Of a stretch of 64,000 nucleotides of DNA, positions 5,062 to 39,927 are shown piece after piece (position 1 is the stretch's first letter; every line of letters begins with the position of its first letter). The notes below the pieces were generated by a model that saw only the letters and a program-made list of their open reading frames with translations, had not been told where the DNA came from and did not search any database. Origin of the DNA: an uncultured virus (IMG/VR IMGVR_UViG_3300031182_000003) (taxonomy: Duplodnaviria > Heunggongvirae > Uroviricota > Caudoviricetes); IMG/VR virus record IMGVR_UViG_3300031182_000003; one strand, written 5' to 3'. Position numbers and translations under genes: made by a program.

Positions 5062-5173
5062 TCGCTGTTACATTTTGACTCGTTGTCGTTGACAATGGCG
5101 ACATTGTCACAATATACTAGAGAGGACAGGACTCATCGTCCTCTCTAGTATTGACAACGGGGAGTGTAACACG

Positions 5174-5614
5174 ATGTCGGACAAGGCTGTCGCCTACGAA
5201 ACGCCTTTCACCGAGCAAGCCGTGTTGTCGCTGAGTGACCACATCAAGGCATCGTTGACCGAATATGCGAAGAACAATGGCAAGGATGGCAAGGTTGACT
5301 TCTTCGTCATGATGGCCGCACTCGGCCAAACGGCGTTTGAGATGGCAATGTCAACGTTGCCGAAATCGCAGGAAGACCGCAAGGCGATCCACGATGAAAT
5401 GCGGTTGCTGACGGACAACCTGCTGGCGAAGATCGACGCTGTTCGGGTCGAGTACAAGACGCGCGGCTCAACCGATCTCGTCGCCATTGCGCATTTGATG
5501 TCGTTGGTTGCGGAAATTTATTCCCGCAGGCGCGACGCGGCTGTTCTGAAAGTTCTGCAAGACCAAGCGGAAGCCGCCAGTCAAGACGCGGCTCAAGCAC
5601 AAGCGGAGTCGTAA
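5174..5614 (+). CDS. Hypothetical helical protein
   Basis: GGGGAG RBS; coding-like composition. Confidence 0.7.
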   Translation: MSDKAVAYETPFTEQAVLSLSDHIKASLTEYAKNNGKDGKVDFFVMMAALGQTAFEMAMSTLPKSQEDRKAIHDEMRLLTDNLLAKIDAVRVEYKTRGSTDLVAIAHLMSLVAEIYSRRRDAAVLKVLQDQAEAASQDAAQAQAES

Positions 5615-5874
5615 GACTCCTCACATGAGGGTATGATGTGCCGCTCAGGAATGTTTTCAACCCCTTACGTTCCCGGCGGAACACGGCTTCACATCGTACC
5701 TTCATGTGGGTAGTCTGCACCGCTATCCAGCCACCCTTTCGATTCCTGTTTGGACGGGGGGAACTCTTTGTTCTTCCCGTGAGGCATTCGTCGTATCCGA
5801 CGGGTGTCTCACAGGGGGGACAAAAACGGGCCTGCATTTTGCGGGCCCATCATTTTATCGCAGGAGTGATTGTC

Positions 5875-6402
5875 GTGAGCAAGGACAAAGTGGTTTCGAT
5901 AGACCAGTTGCGGCAAAGACGCGAGGAGCGCCAGATGCAACAAAGCCCCGAATCTGCTCAATTGCCCTCGCATATTGAGCAGGCTCTCGAAGCGGAAAAC
6001 CAAAAGGTGCTTGCTGTATTCAAGACGCTCGATGAGGCATTGTCGAAGTATTCCAAGAACAATGCGTTCGGATCCGTTTTGGTTCCCATCGAAGCTTTGG
6101 CCCGCATGATACTGAGTGCGGCAACATCCATCGACCGGCATCTGCCGGAACAAGATCAGATTGACCAGATAGACTTCCGCAACGAACTTTCGGAGGGCAT
6201 TCTGGATGTGATCAACATCGTTATTGAGGATCGTCAGCTTATGGGTCAAACCAAGATTTATAAGCATGACGTTTACATAGCCCTCATTATGGCATTATTG
6301 TCATCGCTCTTTGAGCATCGCATTGTGCAAATTCAACTGGAAAAGAAAGGGGTTGCCTCGCGTGTCGAGCCAAGTTTCACTGACGATTCAAACAAAGGAT
6401 AA
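5875..6402 (+). CDS. Hypothetical protein
   Basis: AGGAGTG RBS before GTG 5875. Confidence 0.65.
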   Translation: MSKDKVVSIDQLRQRREERQMQQSPESAQLPSHIEQALEAENQKVLAVFKTLDEALSKYSKNNAFGSVLVPIEALARMILSAATSIDRHLPEQDQIDQIDFRNELSEGILDVINIVIEDRQLMGQTKIYKHDVYIALIMALLSSLFEHRIVQIQLEKKGVASRVEPSFTDDSNKG

Positions 6403-7057
6403 GAATCTGATCTACAGTGCGACGGGGCTGAATGACGAACACGATCTGGCCGTCATCAAAGGCATGTTTGCCGCTTTCGGTTTGTGCGAAGGCGGCCCAC
6501 TCCCTGAATTGCCGCCCGCTGTTGTTGCAGGGACACAACAAGTCGCGGTTACAGCCATTGCGGAGCCTCCGGCTAAAACACAAATGCCTGAACCGGAAAA
6601 GCCCAAAGCACAACAAGAACAGTCGGCTTCTCGTCCGCGACAGCTTCCGTTCATCAATGCCGAGCGCGGCACAACCAAAATTGGTGATATTCCGGGCGTT
6701 GCCGACAAGCTGATCGAAGCAGGCTTCCAGATTGTGGAGAAGACCAATGCGCAGGTGCCCGACCATATTGCAACCGGCATCAAGCTGAAAGAAATCGGCG
6801 GCGAAATAAAGCGAACCTACCGGTGCAAAAACCACTGTCCGAAGTGCGGAGAGATCAGCAATTCCTATCTGTTGCCGCACAATGTATGGTCGAAGTGCTT
6901 CCATTGCGGCACGAAGCTTGCCGCTGTTCCGGCCATCCCCGGCGAACTGCTCGTACCCGACGAGCATATGAACTTCTTCTACGCGGAAGAAGAATATTAT
7001 GAGGTAGGCTATGATGACGACAGACAAGGATCCGAATCTGATCCAGCAGATGTTTGA
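6362..7057 (+). CDS. Hypothetical protein with C-terminal zinc ribbon
   Basis: CPKCG...CFHCG motifs. Confidence 0.65.
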   Translation: MSSQVSLTIQTKDKNLIYSATGLNDEHDLAVIKGMFAAFGLCEGGPLPELPPAVVAGTQQVAVTAIAEPPAKTQMPEPEKPKAQQEQSASRPRQLPFINAERGTTKIGDIPGVADKLIEAGFQIVEKTNAQVPDHIATGIKLKEIGGEIKRTYRCKNHCPKCGEISNSYLLPHNVWSKCFHCGTKLAAVPAIPGELLVPDEHMNFFYAEEEYYEVGYDDDRQGSESDPADV

Positions 7058-7388
7058 ACGGTTCAAATCCGTTCACCCCATCTTCAATGACTGTATGCAG
7101 AAGATCTACGAGAAGGAAGGGTTTGACCCAACCGAAATGGCGATCTATCTCAACATCATGACCGGCCAGTATATTCACAAGACTCTTATGGAGTACACCG
7201 GCATGACGACGGAGGAGATCGGCAATCTGGCGAATATGCAGGTTGAATCGTTCAGCCAGAGCGGCACCATGAACAAGCATACACTCACCGGGCAGATTAT
7301 CGGCCTCCAAGCCGCTCTCGGCGTCGCTCTTACCAAACTCGATCTTGTGATGAAGTCGTTGGCAGAAGGTAACAAGGATCCGTCGTGA
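7011..7388 (+). CDS. Hypothetical protein
   Basis: GAGG RBS; overlaps upstream ORF end. Confidence 0.6.
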   Translation: MMTTDKDPNLIQQMFERFKSVHPIFNDCMQKIYEKEGFDPTEMAIYLNIMTGQYIHKTLMEYTGMTTEEIGNLANMQVESFSQSGTMNKHTLTGQIIGLQAALGVALTKLDLVMKSLAEGNKDPS

Positions 7389-7446
7389 TATGGTACAATT
7401 GTCGTGAGCCAACCCGCTCTCATTCTTTGGTCAGCAGGTGATGCAT

Positions 7447-7620
7447 ATGGCACTCACGGCACCGCAACAAGCCGAAGTGAACAAGCTGAAAGCCCAAATT
7501 GCCGACCTCAAGCAAACGGTGATGAATACTAAGCATTGCACGATGGGTGGCTTCGGCAACTATCTGTTCGACGCCTTCAAGCAGATCGAAGATCAAGTCA
7601 AGAAGATCGAACAGACTTGA
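7447..7620 (+). CDS. Small helical protein, MALTAPQQ paralog 1
   Basis: AGGTGA RBS; N-terminus identical to the 8800 protein. Confidence 0.7.
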   Translation: MALTAPQQAEVNKLKAQIADLKQTVMNTKHCTMGGFGNYLFDAFKQIEDQVKKIEQT

Positions 7621-7684
7621 GCATGACGCCCCGGTGTCCCGGGGCGCATTGCTTACCAGCATATGTCGTGAGGAGGTGTCAACT

Positions 7685-7954
7685 GTGGTTCTCTACCATG
7701 TGACCACACCGAAGAAGGCCAAGAACTACAGTGCTTCCGGCTGTATTCACCGTCCGGTGAGAGGATTCACAACGCTCATGGCGGCAATGGCATGGGCGGT
7801 GAAGACTCAGCGCTCAGTCATATATGCTGTTGAAGGTGACAAAGCATACAAGCTTCCCGACCATCACAACAAATATGGCGAGGCGTGGTGGCTGGACGAA
7901 GATGTGCCGATGGAAAGAGCAACCTGTGTATTCAGCGCCGACAAAGATGCTTAG
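7685..7954 (+). CDS. Hypothetical protein (LYHVT motif)
   Basis: GAGGAGGTG RBS; VLYHVTTPKK start loosely resembles ART-fold/DUF952-type small proteins (weak). Confidence 0.65.
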   Translation: MVLYHVTTPKKAKNYSASGCIHRPVRGFTTLMAAMAWAVKTQRSVIYAVEGDKAYKLPDHHNKYGEAWWLDEDVPMERATCVFSADKDA

Positions 7955-7979
7955 GAGGTTCTGTAGAAGGAGGATATCC

Positions 7980-8225
7980 ATGTCTGATCGCCAAAACACG
8001 ATGGATCGCATCCTGCGTTGTCTGGAGTGGGCAGAAATCGACATCGAAGATGTCAAAGAAGGCACGATTCTTACCGATGACATTGGCATGAACAGTCTTG
8101 ATAGAATCCGTCTCGCCACGGAAATCGAGGACGAGTTCGATATCGAAGTTGAATATAAAACCATCATGAGTTGGGAGACCGTCGGTGACATTGTCCGGTA
8201 TGTCAACAAGAACATCCGTGACTAA
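7980..8225 (+). CDS. Acyl carrier protein-like
   Basis: 81 aa, acidic; DDIGMNSLDRIRL (DSL-like Ser site), IEDEFDIEV, TVGDIVRYV. Confidence 0.8.
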   Translation: MSDRQNTMDRILRCLEWAEIDIEDVKEGTILTDDIGMNSLDRIRLATEIEDEFDIEVEYKTIMSWETVGDIVRYVNKNIRD

Positions 8226-8232
8226 GCCCTTC

Positions 8233-8668
8233 GACGGGCTTCACATTCAGCACCTATGCAGGTGTCGCTAGTCTCTCAAAGGCCAAGAGAGACCTTGGAC
8301 ATACGACGAGGCGGGTCTTGCAAACCCGGTGGCAGTATGCAGGAGGAGAAAAGGTACGGCAAAGCGAGGAAATCGCACCAAGTCCGTCTCCGAAACGTAT
8401 CCTCATCCAGTAAACGACACCGTTCCGAAGTCCACTGATCGGTAATGGCCAGAATAACCGATAAAGGGCATGGGTGCTGAACCTTGAAGTCCGTCGCGCC
8501 CGCGACGCAATTTCCTGTTCTTTGCATCTTCGGTGATTGAGAACAATCTCGGGCTGGCTACGGCCTAGAAATGAAGTGGCACCATTACATGCTGACGCAT
8601 GGCCTGATTCTTCATGTACCACTAAACTCGCTGGCCGAGAACGGCCCGGGCTATGGAACACATAGCCC
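8233..8668 (+). ncRNA. Candidate large multi-branched structured RNA
   Basis: GACGGGCTTCA/TGAAGTCCGTC and TTCAGCACCTATGC/GCATGGGTGCTGAA close 8233-8495; internal helices GGTGTCG/CGACACC, GTCTCTC/GAGAGAC, CATAC/GTATG; no credible ORF. Confidence 0.55.
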
Positions 8669-8697
8669 GTATCATTCATTTTATGTATAATGTTCTT

Positions 8698-8741
8698 GGG
8701 GAAAGGGTACATATTGTCGGTTCGACTCCGACGTTCCCCCA
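8698..8741 (+). ncRNA. Minimal tRNA-like element (acceptor stem plus T arm only)
   Basis: GGGGAA...GTCGG-TTCGACT-CCGAC-GTTCCCC; TGTATAAT ends 6 nt upstream. Confidence 0.55.
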
Positions 8742-8799
8742 CTCTCCCTTTGGGCGGCAAACCCGCCCTGTTACTCCCTCCAGAAGTGGGTGATAAACT

Positions 8800-9021
8800 A
8801 TGGCATTGACGGCACCGCAACAAGAGAAGATGGATGAAGCCAAGGCTACGCTTGTGCAGATCAAGTCCGGCCTTGAGCAAATGCAGGAAGTGGTCTACAA
8901 CTCCCTGTCCATCCAGAACGTCGGCGGCTCGCACATCTACAACTTGGGCCAAGACCTGAAGCCCCTGTTCGCAAAGCTGGAGTCGCAACTCGAAGCGGTC
9001 GAAACGGTCGGAGATGAGTAA
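8800..9021 (+). CDS. Small helical protein, MALTAPQQ paralog 2
   Basis: GGGTGA RBS; paralog of the 7447 protein. Confidence 0.75.
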   Translation: MALTAPQQEKMDEAKATLVQIKSGLEQMQEVVYNSLSIQNVGGSHIYNLGQDLKPLFAKLESQLEAVETVGDE

Positions 9022-9258
9022 CGTTCGTTACTGCTTCGATTGTCAGCAATGGCTTCCCGCTTATAAAGTCTTTGCTGACCGTTTCGCCTACCATTGCTGT
9101 TGGTATTGCCATTGCACCGTGGCAATCGAACGGCGATCCAAAACGTTAACGTTATAGCCCCACGGAGGAAGTGACGGAAACCCGTCGCTTTCTTTGTTTT
9201 ATAGTCTGCTCCGTTGTCACGGAATGTTATGACTATGGAATGAAAGGATGCGACGGGT

Positions 9259-9912
9259 ATGGCAACAACAATCGTTAATAAGTATCACAAGCTTCCGTTT
9301 GATGAATACATTGGTCGTGGCTCGAAATGGGGCAATCCGTTTTCACACATGGAAGGCACCAAGGCGAAGTTCAAAGTCGCCACTCGCGAAGAAGCTATAC
9401 AGAATTATCGCCAGTGGATTCTCAGACAACCGGAGCTTTTACTGTCCCTTCATGAATTGAAGGACAAAACGCTTGCGTGCTTTTGCAAGCCTGCCGCATG
9501 TCATGGTGATGTGATTGTCGATCTGATTGAAAATACGTTCTTCCTAGTGATTGCGGGCTCCCGGGACTTCGATGATTACGAACTGCTGAAGATGAAGGCG
9601 GACAAGATTACACGCCGCATCAAGAAGCAGATCGTTGTTGTATCCGGCACCGCAAAAGGAGCCGACAGACTCGGCGAGCGTTATGCGAAGGAGCGCGGCT
9701 ATGATGTTGCGTACTTCCCGGCTGACTGGAATCGGTACGGCAAACGCGCCGGTATGTTACGCAATTGTGACATGGCGACGCTCGTGAAAAATCTTCGCGG
9801 CGGCGTCATTTGTTTTTGGGATGGATCATCTCCCGGCACGCGCGGTATGATTAACATCTGCGAAGAACTCGGGGTGCAACTCCGTGTCATCAAGTATCCA
9901 AACTACGCTTAG
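9259..9912 (+). CDS. DUF4326 domain fused to a SLOG (YspA/DUF2493-like) domain
   Basis: YIGRGSKWGNPF and LACFCKPAACHGDV, then IAGSRDF, VVSGTAKGADRLGE, ADWNRYGKRAGMLRN, WDGSSPGT. Confidence 0.8.
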   Translation: MATTIVNKYHKLPFDEYIGRGSKWGNPFSHMEGTKAKFKVATREEAIQNYRQWILRQPELLLSLHELKDKTLACFCKPAACHGDVIVDLIENTFFLVIAGSRDFDDYELLKMKADKITRRIKKQIVVVSGTAKGADRLGERYAKERGYDVAYFPADWNRYGKRAGMLRNCDMATLVKNLRGGVICFWDGSSPGTRGMINICEELGVQLRVIKYPNYA

Positions 9913-10104: not shown

Positions 10105-11874
10105 GTGAAGCAAGTGGGCGCACAGACCATCTGGAGATGCAATGATGCTGTTATCAGCGGCGAGAATCCGGCAATCGAACTGCTTGAGATGCGCGGGATT
10201 GAAGATCCTGCCGACTTTCTCAAGATCACGAAGAAGAAGCTCCACAACCCGTACAAGATGAAGGACATGAAGAAGGCCGTACAACGTATCACACAAGCCA
10301 TCAAGAATGGCGAGAAGATTCGCATTTATGGCGACTATGATGCCGACGGCGTTTCTTCCACATCGCTATGGGTGATGATTCTCCGGGAACTCGGAGCAGA
10401 TGTGAGCTACTTCGTGCCCGACCGGTTCAAGGATGGTTACGGTGTCAATAACAAGGCGATCACTGACTGTCACAAGCAGGGCGTTCAGCTTATCATCACA
10501 TGCGATACCGGTATTACGGCTATTGAGCAAGTGCAGTTTGCCAAATCGCTTGGCATGGACATCATTGTGACCGATCATCATGAACCCCAACCGGTAGATG
10601 CATACGATGAAGCCTTGCAGAAGATTGGACAAGTCGTACACAACGCCACCAATGAGGCATATCTCATTCCTGACACTATCGTTGTCAATCCCAAGCGCCC
10701 GGATTGCAAGTATCCATTCAAATCACTTGCCGGTGTTGGCGTATCGTTCAAGATTCTTTGTGCGGTATGCGAGAAGATTCACCCCACCGGCAGAGCCGCC
10801 GCTTACGCTCATATGGACATCGTTGCGCTCGGCACGTTTGCTGACCAAATGGATGTCATTGATGAGAACCGTGTAATCGGCAAACTCGGGCTCAAGATGA
10901 TGAAGAAAACGAAGAATCGTGGCCTCTACCAGTTAATTAGGGCCAATGATCTCGCCGACAAGAAGCTGTCATCCAAGGATATCGGATGGACGATTGCCCC
11001 CTGCATCAACGCCGCCGGACGCATTGTATCGGCGACGGATGCGGTGGAGATGCTCATCTCCAACAACAAGCTTGATGCCTACCGATGCGCGAAGAAGCTT
11101 GTGGAAATCAACGAAGAACGAAAGAAACTCACCAAGAAGTACGTTCAATCCATCATTGAGGCCATTGAGTCTGAACAACAGGACGATCCAACTGCGATCA
11201 TTGTGCATTATCATCCCGGTGTGCCGGAAGGCATCATTGGGTTAATTGCAGGCAGGATCGCCAACCATTTCTACAAACCTGCCATCCTGCTGTCAGACAG
11301 CGAAGAACCAGATATCTATAAAGGGTCGGCACGTTCGATCAAAGGGTTCGACATGTTCGGAGCGCTGATGCATCAGACGAGCATCATGGAAGGTTTCGGC
11401 GGACATACAATGGCATGTGGCCTATCCGTCCATAAAGACAACTTCGAGCAATTACGGGCACGCCTTGAGCTTTACGCCGAAACGATTCTGTCGAACGAAG
11501 ACCTGCAACGCAAGGTGTACATTGACTGTATCATCGAAAACGGCAAAATTCTCGACATCGACTTCGTAAAGGATATCCGCAGGCTTGAACCCTTTGGCAA
11601 TGGAAATCAGCGGCCCACTTTTATGATGAGAAAATTAAAGGTGATCCGCGAGATGCCTGTCGGAGAGGAGAAGAATCATTTGTGGGCTTTGCTCAGCGAC
11701 GGCAAGACAACGTTCTCGACAATCGGCTTCTGGCTGTATGACAAATACGTCGCTCTGGGCAAACCGCAAAAGATCGACATCGCGTTCTTCCCCAACCTGA
11801 ACGAATATCCCAAAGGCTCGGGAAAAGTGTCTGTTCAGCTTGAACTGGAAGATATCCGAAAGGCCGCAAAGTGA
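10105..11874 (+). CDS. recJ: ssDNA-specific exonuclease RecJ
   Basis: GDYDADG, ITCDTG, TDHH, NAAGR, KGSARS, GGH, LEPFGNGN motifs. Confidence 0.95.
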   Translation: MKQVGAQTIWRCNDAVISGENPAIELLEMRGIEDPADFLKITKKKLHNPYKMKDMKKAVQRITQAIKNGEKIRIYGDYDADGVSSTSLWVMILRELGADVSYFVPDRFKDGYGVNNKAITDCHKQGVQLIITCDTGITAIEQVQFAKSLGMDIIVTDHHEPQPVDAYDEALQKIGQVVHNATNEAYLIPDTIVVNPKRPDCKYPFKSLAGVGVSFKILCAVCEKIHPTGRAAAYAHMDIVALGTFADQMDVIDENRVIGKLGLKMMKKTKNRGLYQLIRANDLADKKLSSKDIGWTIAPCINAAGRIVSATDAVEMLISNNKLDAYRCAKKLVEINEERKKLTKKYVQSIIEAIESEQQDDPTAIIVHYHPGVPEGIIGLIAGRIANHFYKPAILLSDSEEPDIYKGSARSIKGFDMFGALMHQTSIMEGFGGHTMACGLSVHKDNFEQLRARLELYAETILSNEDLQRKVYIDCIIENGKILDIDFVKDIRRLEPFGNGNQRPTFMMRKLKVIREMPVGEEKNHLWALLSDGKTTFSTIGFWLYDKYVALGKPQKIDIAFFPNLNEYPKGSGKVSVQLELEDIRKAAK

Positions 11875-11893
11875 TCACCGGAAAGGTGAAATC

Positions 11894-12463
11894 ATGTGGC
11901 TTATTATTCTGATCGTTGACAATCTTGTACTTCTGGCCCTGTTCTTGTGGTATCGCAGACAGTACCGCCGCAAGCTTGAGGAAGTGCGCAACTTGATTAC
12001 GCGCGACCCGCTGACAAAACTGTATAATCGGCGCGGTTTTGAAGACATGCTGATGCAAATCCGCAGAATGTCGAGTCATCGGGAGCCCTTTGCCGTTCTG
12101 ATGATCGACGTGGATCATTTCAAGTCAATCAATGACACGTATGGTCATTGCTTCGGCGATGCTGTTCTGCGAGTCATTGGTATGCTGATCGAAGATGAAT
12201 GTAAGGGCAACGGAATCGTTGCCCGATTCGGCGGCGAGGAGTTTGTTGTTATCCTCCCGCAAGTCACTCGGGAACAGGCCGTTCTTGTTGCTGAACACAT
12301 CCGAAATCGAGTTCGCACCCATGTCTTTGATTCGCATCCTGAACTGCGAATCACCGTCAGCATTGGCATTGGCTTGAGTCAGGAAAGCGGAGCGATTGTG
12401 GATAGTGCGGACAAGAAGCTTTACCTTGCCAAGAATGCGGGTCGGAACAAGATCATTGTATAA
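11894..12463 (+). CDS. Membrane-anchored diguanylate cyclase (GGDEF domain)
   Basis: N-terminal TM helix; DPLTKLYNRR, IDVDHFKSINDTYGH, RFGGEEF, ADKKLYLAKNAGRN. Confidence 0.93.
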   Translation: MWLIILIVDNLVLLALFLWYRRQYRRKLEEVRNLITRDPLTKLYNRRGFEDMLMQIRRMSSHREPFAVLMIDVDHFKSINDTYGHCFGDAVLRVIGMLIEDECKGNGIVARFGGEEFVVILPQVTREQAVLVAEHIRNRVRTHVFDSHPELRITVSIGIGLSQESGAIVDSADKKLYLAKNAGRNKIIV

Positions 12464-14905: not shown

Positions 14906-15042
14906 CGGCTATTCGGAAAATCATGTTGAAAAGGATGATTAATAAATCTTCAATTAATAAGGGGGAAGATAGCAATAGGATTGGACATGTACATTTATAA
15001 GGTAGATACAAGGATTGACTCGCAATGGGAGTGTTTGTTTTT

Positions 15043-15327
15043 ATGGTTGCAAAAAGTTATGATATGGGACACGAAATTATTTATTTAGGTGATAGATGGT
15101 GTTATGCAGACAATGAACAAGACACTTACCATCAAAGACCATGTAAAAAATGTGGACTATTTAAAACACCAGAAGGACACGATCCATGTATTGCTAATTT
15201 GGACGGTGTAAGAAATGCTTGCTGTGGTCATGGTGTAACAGAAGGATATGTGCAATTTGATAATGGATTAGTTATTCGCGGCTATTTCGATCATTTGAAA
15301 GATAAGCAAGGAGAGTTCAATGGATAA
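15043..15327 (+). CDS. Cys/His-rich hypothetical protein in an AT-rich insertion
   Basis: CKKCG, HDPC, ACCGHG; GC clearly lower than the flanks. Confidence 0.7.
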   Translation: MVAKSYDMGHEIIYLGDRWCYADNEQDTYHQRPCKKCGLFKTPEGHDPCIANLDGVRNACCGHGVTEGYVQFDNGLVIRGYFDHLKDKQGEFNG

Positions 15328-15522
15328 TATATGTGAAAAATTTGATTTGATGAAGATGTTAGAGAAAATCAAAGTAGCATTTCCAAATGCGTTTATTAAT
15401 CGGAACATCATATTTCAATATGATATTCCGAATAGCCTTTTTCTTCTTCAGGAGGTTTGTTTTCTATTCACCCCGTTTCTGTTACAATAGAGCTAATGAC
15501 AATTGTGAACGGGGTGACAATT

Positions 15523-16005: not shown

Positions 16006-16893
16006 ATGCCGAGGCTACCGGGATACACAAAGCGGTTAAGCCCGAGCAAGCTCATAGGCCGCGTGGATTTGCATTATCAAAGCGGCAACAGTGACAAGGT
16101 GTATATCCTTGAGATTGCTCAGGATCCGACCACGAATGACTTTTACCTCATGGCTTTTCACGGTCGGAACGGTTCTACATTGCGCGGAACCCATTACGGC
16201 ACCTTTAGCAATTTCGATGCGGCCAAAGCAAAGCTTCGTACCATTGAAAGATCGAAGTTGCAGAAAGGCTATCAGTTGATAAACGACGAAGGACTGAATG
16301 GGAACAATCCGGCTTCATCATTCCAGACCAGTCAAGGCAACTCCAACCTTAGCACGAGTGCTTTCCTTCGTAGCCGGATGAAAACCATCAATTTCACCCA
16401 TCTGAATGATTCGGAGTTTAGGTCACGATTTGTGGTGAGCGACGATTTCATCCTTCACCGGATTCCGCATATGCGTTTGGTATATGCGGCGGCAAACAGC
16501 GCCGGATGGACGATCTTCGACGCTTATAACTCCAGAAATATGTTCAGACATTGGAACCACATGGTGGGCCGGATCCCGAAGGATCATGATGGTCTCATAT
16601 GGTTTGGCATGTTCAACGATCAGGATACGCAGTTCATTATCCTTGACGTTGTTTATCATCCGCAGATTCAAAACATCTACAAGTCCGAATGGAAAGACCG
16701 CAGAAGGCTGATGAATGTCATCTACGACCAATTGTTTCCCGGTGTCGATCCCTACGACACTTCAAATACAATGTACTTCGCCGAATACTACTACGACGAT
16801 AAAATCGTGGAGTTCACAGTGTCGCGTGGTATATGGATAGCGAGAAACATAAAGCATCCATTCAAGGCGGAGTTCTTCGTCACAACCAAATAG
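16006..16893 (+). CDS. WGR-domain protein with uncharacterised C-terminal region
   Basis: SDKVYILEI...HGRNGS...SKLQKGY WGR-like N-terminus. Confidence 0.7.
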   Translation: MPRLPGYTKRLSPSKLIGRVDLHYQSGNSDKVYILEIAQDPTTNDFYLMAFHGRNGSTLRGTHYGTFSNFDAAKAKLRTIERSKLQKGYQLINDEGLNGNNPASSFQTSQGNSNLSTSAFLRSRMKTINFTHLNDSEFRSRFVVSDDFILHRIPHMRLVYAAANSAGWTIFDAYNSRNMFRHWNHMVGRIPKDHDGLIWFGMFNDQDTQFIILDVVYHPQIQNIYKSEWKDRRRLMNVIYDQLFPGVDPYDTSNTMYFAEYYYDDKIVEFTVSRGIWIARNIKHPFKAEFFVTTK

Positions 16894-16904
16894 AAAAGGA
16901 GGCG

Positions 16905-17594
16905 ATGTCCGTGGGCATCTTCTCAAGGATTCGCGACGTGTTCCGGGGAAGGGTAAACGACATCATCGACCGCGCGGAAAATCCGACGGTCATGTTGAAC
17001 CAATATCTCCGGGACTTGGGCCGTGACATCCAAAAGGCTCACGACGCGCTCGCTTTGCAGATGGCGGTGGAAAACCAGCTCCTGAAGGAGTATCGGGACG
17101 CCGAAGCATTGGCAAAGCAACGCGATGAACAGGCCATACAAGCCCTGAAACTGGGCGACGAAGGCTTGGCAGAACGCTGTCTGCTGGATAAGCACCATTT
17201 GCTTCAGAAGGCAGAGGCGTTCAAACAGCAGTACGAGACGGCGCGGGCCAATACGCTCGCATTCCGTCAGCAGTACGACCAACTTCGCGCCGACTACGAA
17301 AAGGCGAAGAACGACCATCGTATTCTGGTCTCGCGCCACGAGTCGGCCAAAGCGCTTGAGCAACTCCATCGCACGATGGGCAAGATCAACATATCCAGCG
17401 TGATGAACAACTTCGAGCGGATGGCTCGGCGTGTTTCCACGATGGAAGCTCGGGTGCAAGCGTCGATGGAACTGTATCGTTCGGAGCGTCAACTTCAGAC
17501 GGATCTGAACAAGCTTACCGGCAGACAGGCCGTCGATGCGGAGATTGCGGCATTGCGCCAGCGTTTGGGCTTGCCGACAGCCGCAACTCAATAA
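16905..17594 (+). CDS. pspA: PspA/IM30 family protein
   Basis: GIFSRIRDVF...NDIIDRAENPTVMLNQYLRD, GDEGLA, FERM; coiled coil. Confidence 0.88.
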   Translation: MSVGIFSRIRDVFRGRVNDIIDRAENPTVMLNQYLRDLGRDIQKAHDALALQMAVENQLLKEYRDAEALAKQRDEQAIQALKLGDEGLAERCLLDKHHLLQKAEAFKQQYETARANTLAFRQQYDQLRADYEKAKNDHRILVSRHESAKALEQLHRTMGKINISSVMNNFERMARRVSTMEARVQASMELYRSERQLQTDLNKLTGRQAVDAEIAALRQRLGLPTAATQ

Positions 17595-17624: not shown

Positions 17625-19845
17625 ATGCCGGGAATCTTTGTGGATAGACGGGACGATGATCTTCTGGAGGTCAAAGTCCCGTACTATCTCCCCTACCAGA
17701 AACGAATACGCAAAATCGACGGAGCCCGGTGGGGCGGCGACGATGATCCGTACTGGATTCTCCCGATTGAATCCGCAGAGGATCTCGACGAGGAGTTCTA
17801 CGGCGAACTGATTTACAAGACACCAAGACACGAAATCCTTGGCATTGATCCGCCGAAGCCACCGAAGGTCTTCAAGAAAATTAAGCCGGTGCCCATTGAA
17901 GGGTTAAAACTCCCTCCGTACGACTTCCAGTTGTTCGGTGCTAATTTCATGTGTTACAGCATGAAGAAGCGCCGTATCGTCATCCTCGGAGACCTCATGG
18001 GTTAAACTCATGTAGCCCATGTAAAACCGTGCTAACTGCGGGAACACCCTTAGAGCCCACTCTGCTACAACGGAACCGAAAGGTAAACGTGAATGCGGCT
18101 TAACCATAAAAAATGAGTGGGATTGGGCAACCACGCATCCAAGCCCCTAAGTCCGAATGGATATGGGGAAGGTTCAACGACTATCCCATCGGGCTGGAAA
18201 CAGCCAATAGGAGTAGGGCCTGCCGATAGGCAGGTGGGTGAAAACCCCTTAAATCGAAACGCACGGCCCGCCTTACGGCGGTGATGATATAGTCTACTCC
18301 GACCGCTTCGAGCGGTGTTAAAGTATCCCGAAAGGGACGGTATCTAGGACAGGAAAAACTTTTCAATGCATTATGGCCGCCAAACAGCTTCAGCAGGAAG
18401 GGCTCGTGAAGAAAGTCCTCTGCATCGTGTTGGCACCGCTTCGCACACAATGGCGCGACGAGGTGCATAAGTTCACCTACGAGAAAGCCGTCGTCTTTTC
18501 CGACTTCCGTGCAAAATACAAAACCGTGCGCGGCAAGCGGAAAGTATCGGTAACGGTCGATCAACAGAAGCGCCAGTTCATCGAGAACTTCAGGAACTCC
18601 GATGCGATGTTCATGATCGCCAGCTATCAGGCGCTTCAGCAAAATGAAACCCTTTTTGAAAAAGTCGGATTCGACATGATTATCTTCGACGAGGCACATT
18701 TCATCAACAACAAGCTCTCGAAGACAAACAAGGCGGCTACGATGCTCATTAAGCCCCGCACCAAGCGGCACAAGAAAGGCTACAACAAAGGCATCCAGTA
18801 CATCATTTATGCATCCGGCACGCCGATTACGAATTACCCGGATCAAATCTTTGGTATTGTGCGCACCGGCAACGAAGAAATCTTCGGCAACTGGCGTGAT
18901 TTCCGCGACATGTTCTGTGTGATGAACGATTACAAGGATATTGTCGGGTACAAGAATCTCGACAAACTCCGGCGGCGCACGCAGAACTTCTTTATCCGGC
19001 GCACCGACAAGGAGATCGAGATGTCCCTTCCGAAGATCGTGGAAGACGACATTTACATTGATCCGCATCCGAAGCAATTGAAGGCTGACAAGGAACTTCT
19101 GAAGTATCAGAAGGAACTGATCGACGCCCGTAACAAGTTGCTTCAGTCCGGCAAGAAGATGGAGGCGAAGATGATCGGCGACCGGCTGAAGTCTGTCTTG
19201 AGCCAGCGCCGCATCGCCAGCAACCATCCGAACCTATGGAAGATGTCTCCGAACGAAGCGACACGCGAGCGATACCGGGATTTCATGGTCAAGGACGAAA
19301 TGAGTATCCCGAAGTTCGAGCGTTGCATTGAACTCGTGCAGGAGATCGTAGATAGCGGCCACAAGGTCGTCATCTTCACAGAAAGCCGCCGGATGACGGT
19401 GCTGTTGCACCGTGCGGTCAGCGAGTTCACCAAGGCGGTGCGTTACGTCGGCGGCCTCAGTGACAAAGTACGAGACCGCCGCAAACGCAAATTCAATGAA
19501 GACCCGCGATGTCGTGTGATGATTGCAAACCAAGCCGGATCCACTGGTCTCAATCTGCAAGCGGGCCGGTATCTCATCAATTATGACTTGCCGGACACGC
19601 CTGCTATTTGGGAACAGCGAAAATACCGGATTCGTCGTCTGGATTCCAAACACGACAGAGTTTATATCATCAACCTCATCAATCGTGGTATGGTCGATGA
19701 GCAGATTCTCACCAAGCTGAAGGACAAGCAGGCCGCATTCGACTTTGTCATTGAAAACGATGAGGCATCGTCACAAGTTCATCGCGAGATCGCCAAGAAG
19801 TCGAAGAAAAAGCGGAAGGAGGAGAAGGCAGTTGAATGGAACTAA
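17625..19845 (+). CDS. SNF2/SF2 helicase split by a group I intron (exons 17625-18002 and 18349-19845; 624 aa spliced)
   Basis: Splicing restores motif I GDLMG|TGKT; DEAH, ASGTP, AGSTGLNLQ and QRKYRIRR are in exon 2. Confidence 0.9.
18003..18348 (+). mobile_element. Group I intron without ORF (346 nt)
   Basis: P1 CATGGGT/GCCCATG with U-G pair at the splice site; AACTGCGGGAA, GTTCAACGACTA, GATATAGTCT core elements; terminal G. Confidence 0.92.
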
Positions 19846-21582: not shown

Positions 21583-22926
21583 ATGGCAAAATCCGTACTG
21601 GCGCAAGAAGAAGAACTCGACTTCAACGACGGCGACTTCGTTATCGGAGACGATGAGCAGGAGGAACAGGACGAAGTGCCCGAGCGCCGCGCCAAGAAGA
21701 AGAAAAAGAAGAAGGTCAACTATCAGGCGTTGGAACAACTCGCGCTCGATGCGGTCGATAAACTGAAGGATTTGGGTTCTGAAATCTGCGACCGCGTGTT
21801 CGAGCGGGAAGCTGTCGTGAAGGACATCATGCTGGCGCTCATCGCCAAGGAGAACATTCTTCTCATCGGCCCGCCGGGAACGGCAAAGACGTTACTGGCG
21901 GAACTCGTGGTACAAGGCATCGAAGACGGCGTTGCCTTCAAGTGGATGATGAACCGGACGACCGATCCGTCCGATATCGTCGGCCCGTATTCGATCAAGG
22001 CGATGGAAAATGACCAGTTCCTCCGCATCACGACCGGTCGCTCACCGGAAGCGCACGTTCTGTTCTATGATGAAATCTTCAAGTCGAACGAACCGGCGCT
22101 GAACTACCTGCTGTCGATCCTGAACGAAGGCTACTTCTACAACGACGGCAAGCAAGTGAAGGTCGCACGCCGTCTGGCGATTGCGGCATCGAACGAACTG
22201 CCGGACACCGAAGATCTCAATGCGTTCTTCGACCGGTTTATCTTCCGGCATTGGGTGGACTACGTGAAGGATCCGCAAAACCGGATTCTCATGGGCCGCG
22301 CCGCGCGGGAGGAGAAGAACCCGACCATCAAGAAGAAGACGATCAAAACGAAACTCACGCTCGAAGAAATCGACGCGATGCAGAAGGTCGTCCATATGGT
22401 CGAGTTTCCGGCGATGATCGAAGCCAATTACGACCGGCTGATCCGTGACCTGAATCAGAATTACGGCATCAGCGTCTCCGACCGGAGGTATTACAAAGGC
22501 CAAGTCGCCATGATGGCGCACGCCCTGCTGAACGGTCGGATGCGTGTCAACAACGACGACTTCCAAGCCGTGACGTATATTCTCGGCAATACCAAGGCCG
22601 ACATCGAACATGTCGAGAAGGAAGTCGGCAAGTACAAGAATCCGCATGAAAACACGCTGAAGGAATACGTCAAGAAGGCGCAGGAAGTTCACGACAAGGT
22701 CTTCTCGATGGCAGACAACCGCACAGCAATGGCTGGCGAAGCCGTCACCGCAAATGCGACGCTTCAGGAAATCCTCGTAAAAATGGAGGACGAAATCAAA
22801 GAAGCACGCAAGGCGGGTGTAGATACACGACCGCTGGAGAAGATGATCCAGCAAGTCGAAGACATGATGGCGAAGATCAACGAGGAGTGCCTGCGCAAGA
22901 CTCAGCGGGCTCAGCGCAAATGGTAA
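21583..22926 (+). CDS. MoxR/RavA-type AAA+ ATPase
   Basis: GPPGTAKT, FYDEIFKS, ASNELP, FFDRF, VSDRR. Confidence 0.9.
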   Translation: MAKSVLAQEEELDFNDGDFVIGDDEQEEQDEVPERRAKKKKKKKVNYQALEQLALDAVDKLKDLGSEICDRVFEREAVVKDIMLALIAKENILLIGPPGTAKTLLAELVVQGIEDGVAFKWMMNRTTDPSDIVGPYSIKAMENDQFLRITTGRSPEAHVLFYDEIFKSNEPALNYLLSILNEGYFYNDGKQVKVARRLAIAASNELPDTEDLNAFFDRFIFRHWVDYVKDPQNRILMGRAAREEKNPTIKKKTIKTKLTLEEIDAMQKVVHMVEFPAMIEANYDRLIRDLNQNYGISVSDRRYYKGQVAMMAHALLNGRMRVNNDDFQAVTYILGNTKADIEHVEKEVGKYKNPHENTLKEYVKKAQEVHDKVFSMADNRTAMAGEAVTANATLQEILVKMEDEIKEARKAGVDTRPLEKMIQQVEDMMAKINEECLRKTQRAQRKW

Positions 22927-22946
22927 TTTCATGACACGGGGCCATA

Positions 22947-23162
22947 ATGGCCCCGATTTCGTTTGCGAGAGAGGTGAATTACGTCGATCATGTCATTAAG
23001 ACGCCCGGCGGCGTTACGTTGCGCGGTTGGCGGCTTGGTGAGAGCGACCAAATGGCGCGTGGCAAGTACAAAGATCGGCGCATCATTCAGCCCGATCAAT
23101 ATACATTCATCGCGCGGCGCGGCGTAAGCAGGGAGGAAGTGGGCCTCGACCAATTTGTATAA
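22947..23162 (+). CDS. Small hypothetical protein
   Basis: Fills gap between ATPase and VWA genes; start uncertain. Confidence 0.4.
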   Translation: MAPISFAREVNYVDHVIKTPGGVTLRGWRLGESDQMARGKYKDRRIIQPDQYTFIARRGVSREEVGLDQFV

Positions 23163-23194
23163 GACGTGTTACCATTGGGGATACTAATGGTAAC
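23157..23194 (+). promoter_or_regulatory. Recurrent promoter/operator motif copy
   Basis: GTATAA...GTTAC-N17-GTAAC with internal GGGGATACTA. Confidence 0.7.
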
Positions 23195-23202
23195 GAAGGG
23201 AA

Positions 23203-24987
23203 GTGAACGTAATGGACAAGGATTTTGAACTCGAAGACAGCGAGGAGATCGTCGAGAAAGCGCCCGCCAGAGGCAAGAAGATCCATGAGATTCTCGGGCT
23301 CAAGGAAGACCCGACGACGAAACTCTCGCCGAACTCCATTGACCTCAATGAAATTGACCGTGAAATCTATCACGATTGCGTACAGCGATATCCGGCAATG
23401 GCCGACAATCTGGAAGCGGGCCTTCAGGAGTACGCTCCGTTCGACCATTTGTCGGAGGATATCTTCAACAGCCTGTTCAAGTACAACGTCAACCTGAAAG
23501 ACGAAGACGAAGTGATGGCAAAATCGCAACTTAACCACAAGCTGATGGGCCAACTGCTGGAGACGGAGGAGTATCAAAATCTCCGCAAGCACACGCAATT
23601 TGATCTGCTGGCCTCCGCCATCGGGACGGAAGTTCTCCAGACTTCTGCGATGGAGAAGATCATGCAGTACAAGCAAGCATATCTCCAGAAGTTGCAGACC
23701 GGCCAGCATGTGGACGGCGCGGACGCTGGTGAACTGATTGAGATGCTCAACAAGATGTCGCAAATTCAATCGCAAATCGACGCGCTGGAGGCGCTCAATG
23801 GCCCCGGCGGCCCGGGCTTGACCAAGAAGCAGGCAATGGAGCTTGCGAAGCTCAAGCAGGACTGGAACGATATTGTGGAAGCGTACGAGCAGAACTATAT
23901 CGGCCAGCAACAGCTTCAGCAGGGTATGCAACAGGCCGTTCAGCAGGCTACCAAATCGGCGGCGGTGCAGGTTGGCGAAGTGAAAGACATCATTGAGGCG
24001 TGGGGGTTCGGCGAAGGCTCGCACGACCGCAAGATCAGCCTCGATCAGCGGAAGAAGGCTATCGAACGGGTGCGGCGTTCCAGACGGCTCAGAGACCTCA
24101 CGGACTTGATCGGGCGTTTCAAAGCACTGGCGATGCGCAAGAAGAAAAAGCGGATCCCGGATGGTCACGAGATCAAGACGGTTGAACTCGGAAACAAGCT
24201 GGAGAACATCATGCCGAGCGAACTTGCCAAGCTCACACATCCGGTGATGAAGAAGGACTTCATGCGGCGGTATCATCAAAAGCAACTGATGGTTTACAAG
24301 AAGGAAGACAACAAGACCGTCGGACGCGGGCCGATCATTGTCTGTCATGACAAGTCCGGCTCCATGCGGGGCATCAAGGATGACTGGTCAACCGCACTTA
24401 CGCTTGCGACGCTGGAAATCGCACAGAAGGAGAAGCGAAATTTCGCTTATATCCCGTATGAAGACAAGGTGCTTCAGACCAAGGACATCCGTGCTGGTGA
24501 ACTCGATCCGCAGGACGTTCTCGACATCGCCGAGATGAATGCTGATGGCGGCACGAACTTCATGATGCCGCTGGAACGGGCGTTGAAGTGTCTGGAAGAC
24601 TCGTTGTACAAGAAGGGCGACATTCTGTTTATCACCGATGGTCAGGCGGCGGTCAGTCCAGAGTTCCTTAATCACTTTAAGAAGGTGAAAGAGGAGAAGC
24701 AGTTTTTCGTCACCACAGTCCTGATCAACATCGACGGATGGGCGTCCCGTGGAGGCGTTGAGCCGTTCAGTGATAGTATCACGACAATCTCGTCCGTAGC
24801 GGATCTGGACGAAGCTAACGCCGAGAAAATCTTCAACATCATCAAAGACAAAGACAAATTTGATCCGCAACCTCAACCGAAAAGCAATAATGGCTCGGCG
24901 GTTGCGCAGGTTGTTCAGAACGCCCAAAGTGCCGCCATGATCGACCCCGGAGACGATCTGTGGGAAGATGAAGATGACGGCTATTAA
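23203..24987 (+). CDS. ViaA-like VWA-domain protein
   Basis: GPIIVCHDKSGSM MIDAS, GGTNF, ILFITDG; paired with the RavA-like ATPase. Confidence 0.88.
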   Translation: MNVMDKDFELEDSEEIVEKAPARGKKIHEILGLKEDPTTKLSPNSIDLNEIDREIYHDCVQRYPAMADNLEAGLQEYAPFDHLSEDIFNSLFKYNVNLKDEDEVMAKSQLNHKLMGQLLETEEYQNLRKHTQFDLLASAIGTEVLQTSAMEKIMQYKQAYLQKLQTGQHVDGADAGELIEMLNKMSQIQSQIDALEALNGPGGPGLTKKQAMELAKLKQDWNDIVEAYEQNYIGQQQLQQGMQQAVQQATKSAAVQVGEVKDIIEAWGFGEGSHDRKISLDQRKKAIERVRRSRRLRDLTDLIGRFKALAMRKKKKRIPDGHEIKTVELGNKLENIMPSELAKLTHPVMKKDFMRRYHQKQLMVYKKEDNKTVGRGPIIVCHDKSGSMRGIKDDWSTALTLATLEIAQKEKRNFAYIPYEDKVLQTKDIRAGELDPQDVLDIAEMNADGGTNFMMPLERALKCLEDSLYKKGDILFITDGQAAVSPEFLNHFKKVKEEKQFFVTTVLINIDGWASRGGVEPFSDSITTISSVADLDEANAEKIFNIIKDKDKFDPQPQPKSNNGSAVAQVVQNAQSAAMIDPGDDLWEDEDDGY

Positions 24988-25770: not shown

Positions 25771-25819
25771 ACTCATCCAAGGACATCACGCTCGGCGGGC
25801 TCAGGCCCGCCTCTTTTAT

Positions 25820-25907
25820 GGGATTCTAATGGACTAATCAAGGGATGGGTTTCCCTGAAGGTGGTCGCTCCACCGGAGTCCGGCGGTTCGAGTCCGCGGT
25901 TTCCCCA
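25820..25907 (+). ncRNA. Non-canonical tRNA-like RNA with branched arm
   Basis: GCGG-TTCGAGT-CCGC T arm; imperfect GGGATTC/GTTTCCC acceptor; GGACT/AGTCC encloses two hairpins. Confidence 0.5.
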
Positions 25908-25911
25908 ATAT

Positions 25912-25987
25912 GCGCTCGTAGTTCAGTTGGTCAGAACGTCGATCTCTAAAATCGGAGGCGCAGGTTCGAGTCCTGCCGGGCGCACCA
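25912..25987 (+). tRNA. tRNA with anticodon CUA (amber suppressor)
   Basis: 76-nt cloverleaf: GCGCTCG/CGGGCGC, GTTC/GAAC, TCGAT-CTCTAAA-ATCGG, GCAGG-TTCGAGT-CCTGC, ACCA end; CTA at 25946-25948. Confidence 0.9.
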
Positions 25988-26000
25988 TTTATCCTCTGCC

Positions 26001-26045
26001 ATCTAAAATCGCGTGTCCCGGGTTCGATCCCCAGCGAGGCCACCA
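26001..26045 (+). pseudogene. 3' half of a tRNA (Phe-like body, TCTAAAA loop remnant)
   Basis: CCGGG-TTCGATC-CCCAG-CGAGGCC-ACCA with no matching 5' half. Confidence 0.6.
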
Positions 26046-26066
26046 TGATTTTGAAGGTGATTGCAC

Positions 26067-27357: not shown

Positions 27358-27420
27358 AACTGCCAATATTGTAACGGCGTGCTAAGGGGGCGGTTGCCTC
27401 TCGGTGCGTCGTTACACTCT

Positions 27421-27510
27421 GCGGGAGTAGCGAAGTCGGATAAACGCAAGAGTCCTGCAAGACTCTGCTCCAGAGGAGCTTCGGTGGTTCAAATCCACCC
27501 TCCCGCTCCA
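27421..27510 (+). tRNA. Atypical tRNA: Leu-like long-variable-arm body, GCA in an 8-nt anticodon loop, U73 (Cys-like)
   Basis: GCGGGAG/CTCCCGC-T-CCA; AGAGT-CCTGCAAG-ACTCT; GCTCC/GGAGC variable arm; GGTGG-TTCAAAT-CCACC. Confidence 0.75.
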
Positions 27511-27511
27511 T

Positions 27512-27588
27512 TCTCACTCATCTGGTGGATGGCGCGTCGCAGTCTGCGCAGACGCCGCGCGGGGTGTTCGATTCCCTCAGTGAGAGCC
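27512..27588 (+). ncRNA. tRNA-like RNA lacking an anticodon loop
   Basis: TCTCACT/AGTGAGA acceptor, CATC/GATG D-like stem, extended GCGCG/CGCGC arm, TTCGATT loop. Confidence 0.55.
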
Positions 27589-27592
27589 CCTA

Positions 27593-27681
27593 TGGGATGT
27601 AGGCAATGGTAAAGCCACCCCGAAGTGATCGGGGACAACTGAAAGGTGCTGGAGGTGTTCAAGTCCCTCCCGTCCCTACCA
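27593..27681 (+). ncRNA. tRNA-like RNA (loop AAGTGAT, no U33, bulged T stem, ACCA end)
   Basis: GGGATG/CGTCCC, GGC/GCC D stem, CCCCG/CGGGG stem, GGAGG-T-G-TTCAAGT-C-CCTCC. Confidence 0.6.
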
Positions 27682-27682
27682 T

Positions 27683-27782
27683 GCGGTGGCCGCCCGGCAG
27701 GCGGCGTCGCCAACAAATCTGACGCGGCGTGCGTTGAAACATTGTGGGCGTCGATGAAGGTTCAACTCCTTACCCACCGCCA
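27683..27782 (+). ncRNA. tRNA-like RNA with large insertion replacing the anticodon loop
   Basis: GCGGTGG/CCACCGC, CCGCC/GGCGG, AAGG-TTCAACT-CCTT; ends ...CCGCCA. Confidence 0.55.
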
Positions 27783-27792
27783 GTCTCCTTCT

Positions 27793-27827
27793 GAACCCCC
27801 TGCGGAACAAATCCCCGTAGGGGGTTC
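27793..27827 (+). terminator. Hairpin ending the tRNA cluster
   Basis: GAACCCCCTGCGG/CCGTAGGGGGTTC followed by T-rich sequence. Confidence 0.55.
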
Positions 27828-39440: not shown

Positions 39441-39927
39441 GGTTCTGAACAAGAATGGCGTCCTCGACAGCTATACCACGCTCCCGAAGGCGAAGTCATT
39501 CGTGCGACAACATCGCTGTGTGTGGGTGTCTGAGGATACCATTCAATTGCAAATCGACAGCAAAGACGAGAAGCGCATGAAAGAGGAAGTGTGGGCCGAG
39601 GCTAATTACGTGTGCTATATCTGCGGAAGGCAAATGCACAGAGGGCATGAACTCTTGACCATCGACCACATGACTCCGAAGCGTCTCGGCGGTTCCCTGC
39701 TCAAGTTCAATTTGGCTTGTTGTTGCAAGCCTTGCAATGAAGAAAAGGGATGCCGGACTGTCGAAAGCTACACCGCCTACTTGCTTGCCCGCATATACGC
39801 TATGCTAATATGGTATGGGGTGATAAGAAGGAGGGATGTAAGTGGCGAAAGAATGTTGCGAACATCAAGAATCGACACCCAAGAAGGCCAAAAAACTGAA
39901 TACGAAAAAGCGCAAACGACCGGATAA
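39313..39927 (+). CDS. HNH endonuclease (start uncertain)
   Basis: CYICG, LTIDHMTPKRLGG, NLACCCKPCNEEKG. Confidence 0.8.
   Translation: MSSRKNNKPKSHNRKKNCWSSPMMKGQMKNRAAKKKTSSSTIKVLNKNGVLDSYTTLPKAKSFVRQHRCVWVSEDTIQLQIDSKDEKRMKEEVWAEANYVCYICGRQMHRGHELLTIDHMTPKRLGGSLLKFNLACCCKPCNEEKGCRTVESYTAYLLARIYAMLIWYGVIRRRDVSGERMLRTSRIDTQEGQKTEYEKAQTTG

Follow-up and report, generated by a model that had tools for sequence, protein, structure and literature searches.

Double-stranded RNA segments that are processed by RNase III are known from several settings: the intergenic sites of phage T7, the long-range stems that flank 16S and 23S rRNA, and the intervening sequences of rRNA. Bacterial operons also yield stable RNA fragments derived from their 3' UTRs, and the phages and prophages of the Bacillota carry large ornate RNAs, among them GOLLD and ROOL. 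To our knowledge, transcription in the jumbo phages that resemble Bacillus phage 0305phi8-36 has hitherto been inferred from sequence only.

The DNA considered here, called the window, is a 64-kb stretch (64,000 nucleotides) of an uncultured phage whose nearest named relative is 0305phi8-36. Between its acyl carrier protein (ACP) gene and a gene termed MALTAPQQ paralog 2 lies a gene-free spacer of 574 bases (8226-8799), for which an earlier note had proposed a large structured non-coding RNA (ncRNA). The explanation that we prefer, with a probability of about 0.4, is that the spacer is the structured non-coding tail of the ACP transcription unit. This tail would contain a duplex of the RNase III type, end at 8647-8669, and leave a stable fragment, and the next gene would be transcribed separately. 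The features of the locus are collected in Table 1.

Table 1. Features of the spacer and of its two neighbouring genes (positions in the window)
Feature	Positions	Strand	Remarks
ACP gene	7980-8225	+	Pfam PP-binding, E 4e-10; upstream neighbour of the spacer
Clamp 5' arm	8232-8259	+	12 bp, CA bulge, 14 bp
Enclosed domain	8260-8467	+	208 nt; predicted multi-branch fold at chance level
Clamp 3' arm	8468-8496	+	14 bp, CCU bulge, 12 bp
3' hairpin domain	8497-8646	+	z -3.37 for 8497-8672
9-bp hairpin CGGGCUAUG/CAUAGCCCG	8647-8669 (8647-8655/8661-8669)	+	U-rich tail UAUCAUUCAUUUUAU; MFE fold
TGTATAAT extended -10-like box	8684-8691	+	read from sequence; aligns with boxes at five sites of the window
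tRNA-like minihelix	8698-8742	+	6-bp acceptor-like stem 8698-8703/8734-8739; T arm 8716-8720/8728-8732, loop UUCGACU
GC hairpin GGGCGG-CAAAC-CCGCCC	8752-8768	+	leader of downstream gene
MALTAPQQ paralog 2	8800-9021	+	73 aa; gp81 homolog, 34% identity, pairwise E 4e-8; synteny with RecJ/gp79

All sizeable ORFs of the window lie on the + strand, and the spacer appears to close a transcription unit whose final gene encodes the ACP. The earlier note had described about 435 nt (8233-8668) without a credible ORF. This is confirmed, and the gene-free stretch is the whole of 8226-8799, whether it is read with table 11, with TAG=Q, or with TGA=W. Nine six-frame pieces of the spacer gave no match to PHROGs, and tblastn on 6900-9400 found no remnants of gp80-gp88 of 0305phi8-36 in the spacer (best E 0.06-0.4). 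On these two null results, a pseudogene was rejected. Two other candidate signals were rejected. The spacer is rich in GGCC (6 sites versus 1.7 expected), as are 4 other loci of the window, and a weak antisense match between 8483-8555 and 37861-37934 (67% over 77 nt, E 0.04) was obtained with lax scoring.

In the MFE fold, 8232-8496 is closed by a long-range helix, the clamp, in which 8232-8243 pairs with 8485-8496 (12 bp) and 8246-8259 with 8468-8481 (14 bp). The resulting 26 bp comprise 24 Watson-Crick and 2 G-U pairs, are interrupted by a 2x3-nt internal loop, and enclose 208 nt. These are the two stacked long helices that the earlier note had seen closing 8233-8495, with an outer helix of 12 bp where 11 had been counted and an inner helix of 14 bp. 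The clamp ranks first among the 442 composite long-range helices of the window, and its 24 Watson-Crick pairs exceed the maximum of every one of 20 dinucleotide-shuffled windows (16-19 Watson-Crick pairs). It also has the size of an RNase III substrate, for which a duplex of at least about 20 bp, mostly Watson-Crick, is the yardstick.

The two imperfections of the clamp, G8238-U8490 and U8255-G8472, are G-U pairs on the + strand and C.A mismatches on the - strand, so that the bias toward the + strand described previously is indeed present. A natural variant, 8469 C>T in the RNA run X15, preserves the pairing as G8258-U, a third G-U on the + strand. The imperfections and the variant provide modest evidence for selection of the pairing in the + strand RNA. 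Folding of 8232-8496 gives z -5.39 and -104.1 kcal/mol for the + strand, and z -4.38 and -102.7 kcal/mol for the - strand. That the - strand also folds well speaks against the preferred reading. The nearly equal energies of the strands, and arms that are near-perfect complements as DNA, would suit a site that acts as DNA, such as a replication origin or a packaging or recombination site, with the inverted repeat serving as a protein-binding site or forming a cruciform. However, the cumulative GC skew of the window rises steadily with no turn near 8 kb, the spacer contains no iterons and, apart from two 9-mers, no direct repeats, the region gives rise to RNA that accumulates (see below), and the G-U bias favours RNA. 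We therefore regard a DNA-level site as very improbable.

The MFE fold reproduces all of the inner and terminal hairpins of the earlier note: GGUGUCG/CGACACC, GUCUCUC/GAGAGAC, CAUAC/GUAUG, CGGGU/ACCCG, GCGA-GGAAA-UCGC, and the 3'-terminal CGGGCUAUG/CAUAGCCCG. The list of inner hairpins is nevertheless what random sequence of the same composition yields. The enclosed 8260-8467 has a z of -1.05, and 34 of 200 shuffles fold equally well. In a GC-corrected scan with 200-nt sliding windows, the region is no outlier within the window (z +1.2 to -1.4). With the interior and the sliding windows both unremarkable, the fold signal of 8232-8496 is therefore that of the clamp. The segment 8497-8672 is moderately above chance (1 of 200 shuffles as good), and for 8260-8672, the RNA as covered by the contigs described below, z is -2.74 with none of 100 shuffles as good. 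Thus, the expectation of a fold better than dinucleotide shuffles is borne out for the clamp and for the 3' part, but not for the interior. Alternative pairings, involving a AAGUCCGUC repeat at 8380 and 8487 and AGGAAAUCGC/GCAAUUUCCU, were discarded because they occur at the frequency expected by chance in 600 nt. What remains of the proposed large structured ncRNA is a non-coding RNA that has a real closing helix and is found in RNA libraries; its ornate interior does not survive the comparison with shuffles. An interior of no special character, in a region that is no local outlier, fits a spacer with one functional duplex, whereas an ornate RNA should be conspicuous in its interior as well.

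Another spacer of the window, at 5600-5900, is far more structured than 8226-8799. It lies between a gp90-like gene (5174-5614) and a gp89-like gene whose real start is near 5875-5890. Its MFE is -148.1 kcal/mol (z -10.4) on the + strand and -115.3 kcal/mol (z -5.0) on the - strand, and it contains long, G-U-rich hairpins that belong to no Rfam family. In 0305phi8-36, gp90 and gp89 are separated by a syntenic gap of 1.1 kb with only two tiny ORFs; it has no sequence similarity to 5600-5900, and a 640-nt part of it is structured (z -4.4, 20 shuffles). By these predicted folds, 5600-5900 has a stronger claim to being a structured phage RNA than the spacer at 8226-8799.

The earlier note had suggested a member of a class such as GOLLD or ROOL, or a new class. 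Neither GOLLD nor ROOL was detected by cmscan of the whole window (gathering score and E<=1) or of 8100-8900 (E<=10), and membership in any other Rfam family likewise finds no support, with no match for the spacer at the gathering score and none relevant at E<=10 in 8100-8900. The only Rfam matches in the whole window at the gathering score, two tRNAs and one group I intron, all lie outside the spacer. The intron (17933-18318, 54 bits) interrupts a helicase gene within 17625-19845, and the two halves of this gene (17625-18002 and 18373-19842) are 67% and 61% identical to the uninterrupted gp70 'RecQ helicase' of 0305phi8-36.

Rfam matches to RNase P RNA, SRP RNA, 6S RNA, and Y RNA/YrlA are absent from the window and from 8100-8900, and ARAGORN finds no tmRNA, in line with the earlier failure to see hallmarks of RNase P, SRP, tmRNA or 6S. 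A tmRNA was considered separately. There is no Rfam tmRNA match in 8100-8900 and no frame that ends in a tag-like peptide. By eye, the sole GGGGAA able to pair with the GUUCCCC of the tRNA-like part is at 8698, 30 nt upstream, and this part is therefore a local minihelix rather than the end-to-end tRNA-like domain of a tmRNA; that reading was rejected. A Y RNA was rejected on the Rfam result and the absence of a Ro (TROVE) domain among the 63 proteins of the window scanned with Pfam. A retron msr-msd was also rejected; inverted repeats are present, but the neighbouring genes encode no reverse-transcriptase domain. A search of literature listings on phage structured RNAs found nothing specific.

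Public sequencing data indicate that the spacer is transcribed. Words sampled from 8000-9000 match 23 listed runs; 6 of these are RNA libraries, which contain 13-24% of the words. Contigs from three of these RNA runs (X15, X16 and X17) and from one DNA run (X13) were mapped onto the stretch; the mapped runs are assemblies, which show presence and not ends, strand or level. For three further RNA runs (X18-X20), which contain 13-15% of the words, the word counts do not give the position within that stretch. Two of the mapped RNA runs have only a single contig within 7700-9300, at 8260-8525 in X16 and at 8261-8469 in X17. The third, X15, comes from another habitat and has three contigs: 7763-8011 at a depth of 3.1, 8411-8645 at 39.5, and 8799-9161 at 6.0, each depth being one figure for a whole contig and so giving no strict ranking of parts. 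Thus, all three mapped RNA runs contain spacer contigs, with a combined coverage of 8260-8645, and the lack of expression that the earlier note had named as grounds for dismissal is not observed. The stretches without RNA contigs, 8012-8259 and 8646-8798, are no evidence of absence.

DNA carry-over would be expected to give roughly even depth, so the excess of the spacer contig over its flanks within the one X15 library argues against it and for a stable RNA. X16 and X17 share a start at 8260/8261, which hints only weakly at a 5' end. These starts sit at the top of the clamp, just 3' of its 5' arm and not inside the helix, and among the contig ends at 8260/8261, 8469 and 8525 no cut inside the clamp stem is apparent. 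Indeed, the X15 and X16 contigs cross the 3' arm uncut, and efficient double-strand cleavage is therefore not what the contigs show.

A dedicated RNA gene would also account for the 7- to 13-fold excess over the flanks, and this, together with contigs that carry no strand information, counts against the reading of the spacer as an operon tail. Such a gene would produce a trans-acting phage ncRNA of about 0.4 kb (8260-~8670), a new class restricted to this lineage, either from its own unrecognised promoter or by cutting of the operon transcript, and the RNA might sequester a protein or base-pair with a host or phage target. The recurrence of spacer contigs in every mapped RNA run, their isolation in X16 and X17 with nearly the same start, the depth contrast in X15, the share of RNA libraries among the listed runs, and the folding of 8260-8672 all agree with this possibility. 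So does an RdRP-like RNA polymerase of the phage that has no recognised promoters; ORF 35-874 matches gp99, and the polymerase is discussed in PMC2147016. On the other side, the RNA matches no Rfam family, its interior is at chance level, and neither a sigma-70-type promoter nor the phage motif is found upstream of 8260. Furthermore, homologs occur only in near-identical strains (among GenBank phages, plasmids, IMG/VR, JGI contigs and GTDB genomes), the element is missing from 0305phi8-36, and a 99%-identical strain has freely swapped 8582-8658. We consider a dedicated trans-acting RNA possible, though somewhat doubtful. A broader version of the idea, in which a new lineage-restricted ncRNA (8260-~8670) is released from the ACP operon transcript at the 26-bp clamp, acts in trans during infection, and joins the spacer at 5600-5900 in a group of abundant small RNAs from the early region of this little-studied kind of phage, seems to us unlikely.

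Comparison with relatives is limited to a few close ones. The ACP protein falls in 4 clusters among 5.8 billion proteins (100, 98, 93 and 67% identity), and the MALTAPQQ-2 protein in five (99 to 50% identity). The BLASTN homologs to which the earlier note had looked were not found, either for 8200-8800 in GenBank phages or for 8226-8800 in plasmids, and the DNA relatives that could be compared are near-identical strains. Scans of IMG/VR found no relative, whether the queries were the proteins ACP, MALTAPQQ-2 and RecJ, alignments of ACP and of MALTAPQQ, or a tRNA-like pattern of 26 nt. The ACP alignment retrieved only the window's own contig from JGI metagenomes. GTDB genomes gave no match to the ACP alignment, RecA, the tRNA-like 3' part or the 5' arm of the clamp, and the MALTAPQQ alignment gave one 19-residue match there, in a MAG.

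The strain in DNA run X13 is 98.8% identical over 7700-8581 (11 differences) and about 80% identical over 8659-8943. Between these two parts (joint 8581/8659), 8582-8658 is replaced by 79 unrelated letters, and such a swap in a 99%-identical strain indicates that this part is dispensable or modular. The three differences that fall within the RNA, at 8382, 8396 and 8498, affect an unpaired base, change a G-U to an A-U, and break a marginal pair, one each; they neither test nor refute the predicted fold.

The relationship to 0305phi8-36 is evident from the DnaE protein (64% identical), from RecJ, the counterpart of gp79 (66% identity), from the gp90 counterpart at 5174-5611, and from a conserved gene order. 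In the window, the DnaE-type polymerase is divided between two ORFs. The first, 39842-41290, encodes the PHP domain and the beginning of the NTPase domain, and the second, 41775-44258, encodes the remainder; the two are separated by about 480 nt with small ORFs only. Genes for a GGDEF diguanylate cyclase-like protein, PspA/IM30, and a MoxR-type ATPase with a vWA partner lie within 11840-12463, 16833-17594 and 21583-24987, a set that also includes two UDG-superfamily and two WYL-domain genes. At the position of the ACP gene and spacer, 0305phi8-36 has gp82-84 instead, and its genome contains no DNA similarity to the spacer or to 5600-5900. With no counterpart there and gp82-84 in its place, the element is therefore specific to its lineage, in a slot whose content varies. 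Upstream of gp81, 0305phi8-36 has just 45 nt with a GATATAAT box, which indicates that a long spacer is not needed for the gp81 gene.

The variable slot would also suit an insertion. In this reading, 8232-8496 would be a small DNA element of the MITE or rRNA-intervening-sequence kind, passive in the transcript and merely removed or tolerated. It does have terminal inverted repeats (28-nt arms), and only one other long-range inverted repeat of the window is likewise an outlier. That second repeat (14907-14931/15413-15437) surrounds an AT-rich, insertion-like cassette with a 100-aa ORF. However, comparison of 8222-8231 with 8497-8506 reveals no target-site duplication, no second copy exists in the window, GenBank phages or plasmids, GTDB genomes contain no exact copy of the 5' arm, and the GC content of 8232-8496 is that of the genome. 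In addition, the two arm imperfections and the one variant all form G-U pairs on the coding strand, a pattern that suggests selection for pairing in the RNA. An inserted element thus seems improbable. The cassette at 14907-15437 itself looks like a small insertion. Its 25-nt inverted repeats (92% complementary) surround 481 nt that are AT-rich in a genome of 52% GC; it lies directly 3' of a terminator-like hairpin with a T run, and its Cys-rich ORF (15025-15327) has no Pfam match and a weak PHROG match.

Signals at the 3' end of the spacer bear on how the ACP unit might end and the next gene begin. The 9-bp hairpin, with its U-rich tail, is the probable terminator of the ACP unit; this tail is not a clean tract, and a consensus terminator scan makes no call. 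The TGTATAAT box that follows is, from its resemblance to other boxes, a probable promoter of the downstream gene, and it is likewise not called by a consensus promoter scan. Similar TGTATAAT/TGCATAAT boxes are present at 15921, 23156, 27838, 30293 and 32967. The layout repeated at these five sites consists of a GC hairpin, about 15 nt, the TGTATAAT box, and then a CGTTAC...GTAACG hairpin, and the terminal hairpin with its box fits the first half of this layout. As a promoter-like module, the arrangement can be written as TGTATAAT/TGCATAAT, 4 nt, and a CGTTAC...GTAACGAA hairpin; in many cases a GC hairpin resembling GCCCGGTGTCCCGGGC lies ahead of the module. For 0305phi8-36, PMC2147016 reports a 21-bp phage-specific promoter motif, of which the repeated module is probably the counterpart. 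A different promoter-like region, of the TTGACA type and overlapping the palindrome TGACAATG-GCGA-CATTGTCA, was seen by eye at 5085-5150, directly 5' of the gp90-like gene. A 14-bp hairpin, ACTAGAGAGGAC...GTCCTCTCTAGT, follows, and the region may be an operator.

About 7 nt after the TGTATAAT box, a tRNA-like minihelix opens the leader of the downstream gene. It is not a tRNA: it consists of an acceptor-like stem and T arm only, lacks a D arm, an anticodon arm and an encoded CCA (the phage's tRNA genes, as judged by eye, do end in CCA), and is not called by ARAGORN. The Rfam tRNA-Sec model matches 8698-8740 weakly (14.3 bits, E 9.9), through the acceptor and T arm only. In the X13 strain, here 80% identical, pair 8717/8731 is changed from U-A to C-G and loop base 8724 from G to A. 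An exact copy of the T arm and 3' strand is absent from GTDB genomes, which indicates that the minihelix was not copied recently from the end of a host tRNA. In the GC hairpin that follows, the listed X13 differences lie in the loop (8759, 8761) and the flanks, none in the stems. The gene itself encodes the homolog of gp81, which is annotated in 0305phi8-36 as a 'major virion structural protein', and a consensus scan finds a terminator-like site at 9162-9197, 3' of the gene. PMC2147016 describes gp81 of 0305phi8-36 as a moron gene that carries a promoter and a terminator of its own.

Other tRNA-like pieces of the window lie elsewhere. An amber-suppressor-type tRNA with anticodon CUA, designated tRNA-Pyl by ARAGORN, is at 25912-25987, and an odd tRNA is at 27421-27510. 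Extra T-arm motifs at 25885, 26021, 27565, 27656 and 27759, several of them followed by CCA, are not called as tRNAs by ARAGORN or Rfam, and 27683-27780 gives a weak match to the tRNA-Sec model. These two regions, 25800-26060 and 27400-27800, are syntenic with annotated 'tRNA-like elements' of 0305phi8-36.

The preferred reading, that of a structured operon tail, can be put together as follows. The phage, with a genome that we take to be roughly 208 kb and related to that of 0305phi8-36, would carry the spacer as the long tail of its ACP unit. In RNA that reads through from the ACP gene, the two arms of the clamp would pair, forming the 26-bp duplex around 208 nt. It is established that a duplex of this length is a substrate for the double-strand RNase of the host, RNase III; the clamp may thus be cleaved and serve as a processing or insulating site that parts the ACP message from what follows. 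The unit would stop at the putative terminator at 8647-8669. A fragment of about 0.4 kb, seen from 8260 to at least 8645 and presumably structured at both ends, would then accumulate above the flanking messages, and this abundant RNA may be no more than a stable by-product that lacks a separate function. The gp81-like virion protein gene would be transcribed from its own candidate TGTATAAT promoter, with a leader that opens with the tRNA-like minihelix.

If this reading is correct, the locus displays an ordinary phage transcript architecture, from processing clamp to terminator to the promoter of the next gene, and its interest lies in the lineage, that of the 0305phi8-36-like jumbo phages. 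The negative results are useful in themselves, as they show the supposedly ornate interior to be no better than chance and the RNA to fit no known family. Two leads also emerge: an RNA that accumulates in metatranscriptomes, and the nearby spacer at 5600-5900, where the case for a structured RNA is much stronger. Were the RNA instead to act in trans, a phage-specific RNA would be added to a group with none known.

Compared with the large RNAs GOLLD and ROOL, the spacer RNA is similarly phage-borne, non-coding, several hundred nt long, and found in a Bacillota-type phage lineage, but it has no Rfam match even at E<=10 and an interior no better than shuffles. The window shares tRNA-like pieces with 0305phi8-36, with T-arm motif clusters at 25885-26031 and 27486-27769 that are syntenic with the tRNA-like elements of that phage; the minihelix of the spacer, in contrast, is located elsewhere, in the leader of the gp81-like gene, and has only an acceptor-like stem and T arm. 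The resemblance to RNase III processing stems is closer in form. As in those stems, distant arms of a polycistronic transcript form a duplex that exceeds 20 bp and contains a small internal loop; it sits between genes of an operon-like unit and encloses RNA that accumulates. It differs in that the contig ends lie at the top of the helix rather than inside it, and there is no conserved cleavage-site sequence to compare. Finally, when set beside the 3'-UTR-derived fragments of bacterial operons, the spacer is unusually long (about 440 nt), has a 26-bp long-range clamp, and shows no known target or chaperone site. Yet like those fragments, the RNA follows the last stop codon of its unit, ends in a terminator-like hairpin, and has a contig depth above that of the coding part.
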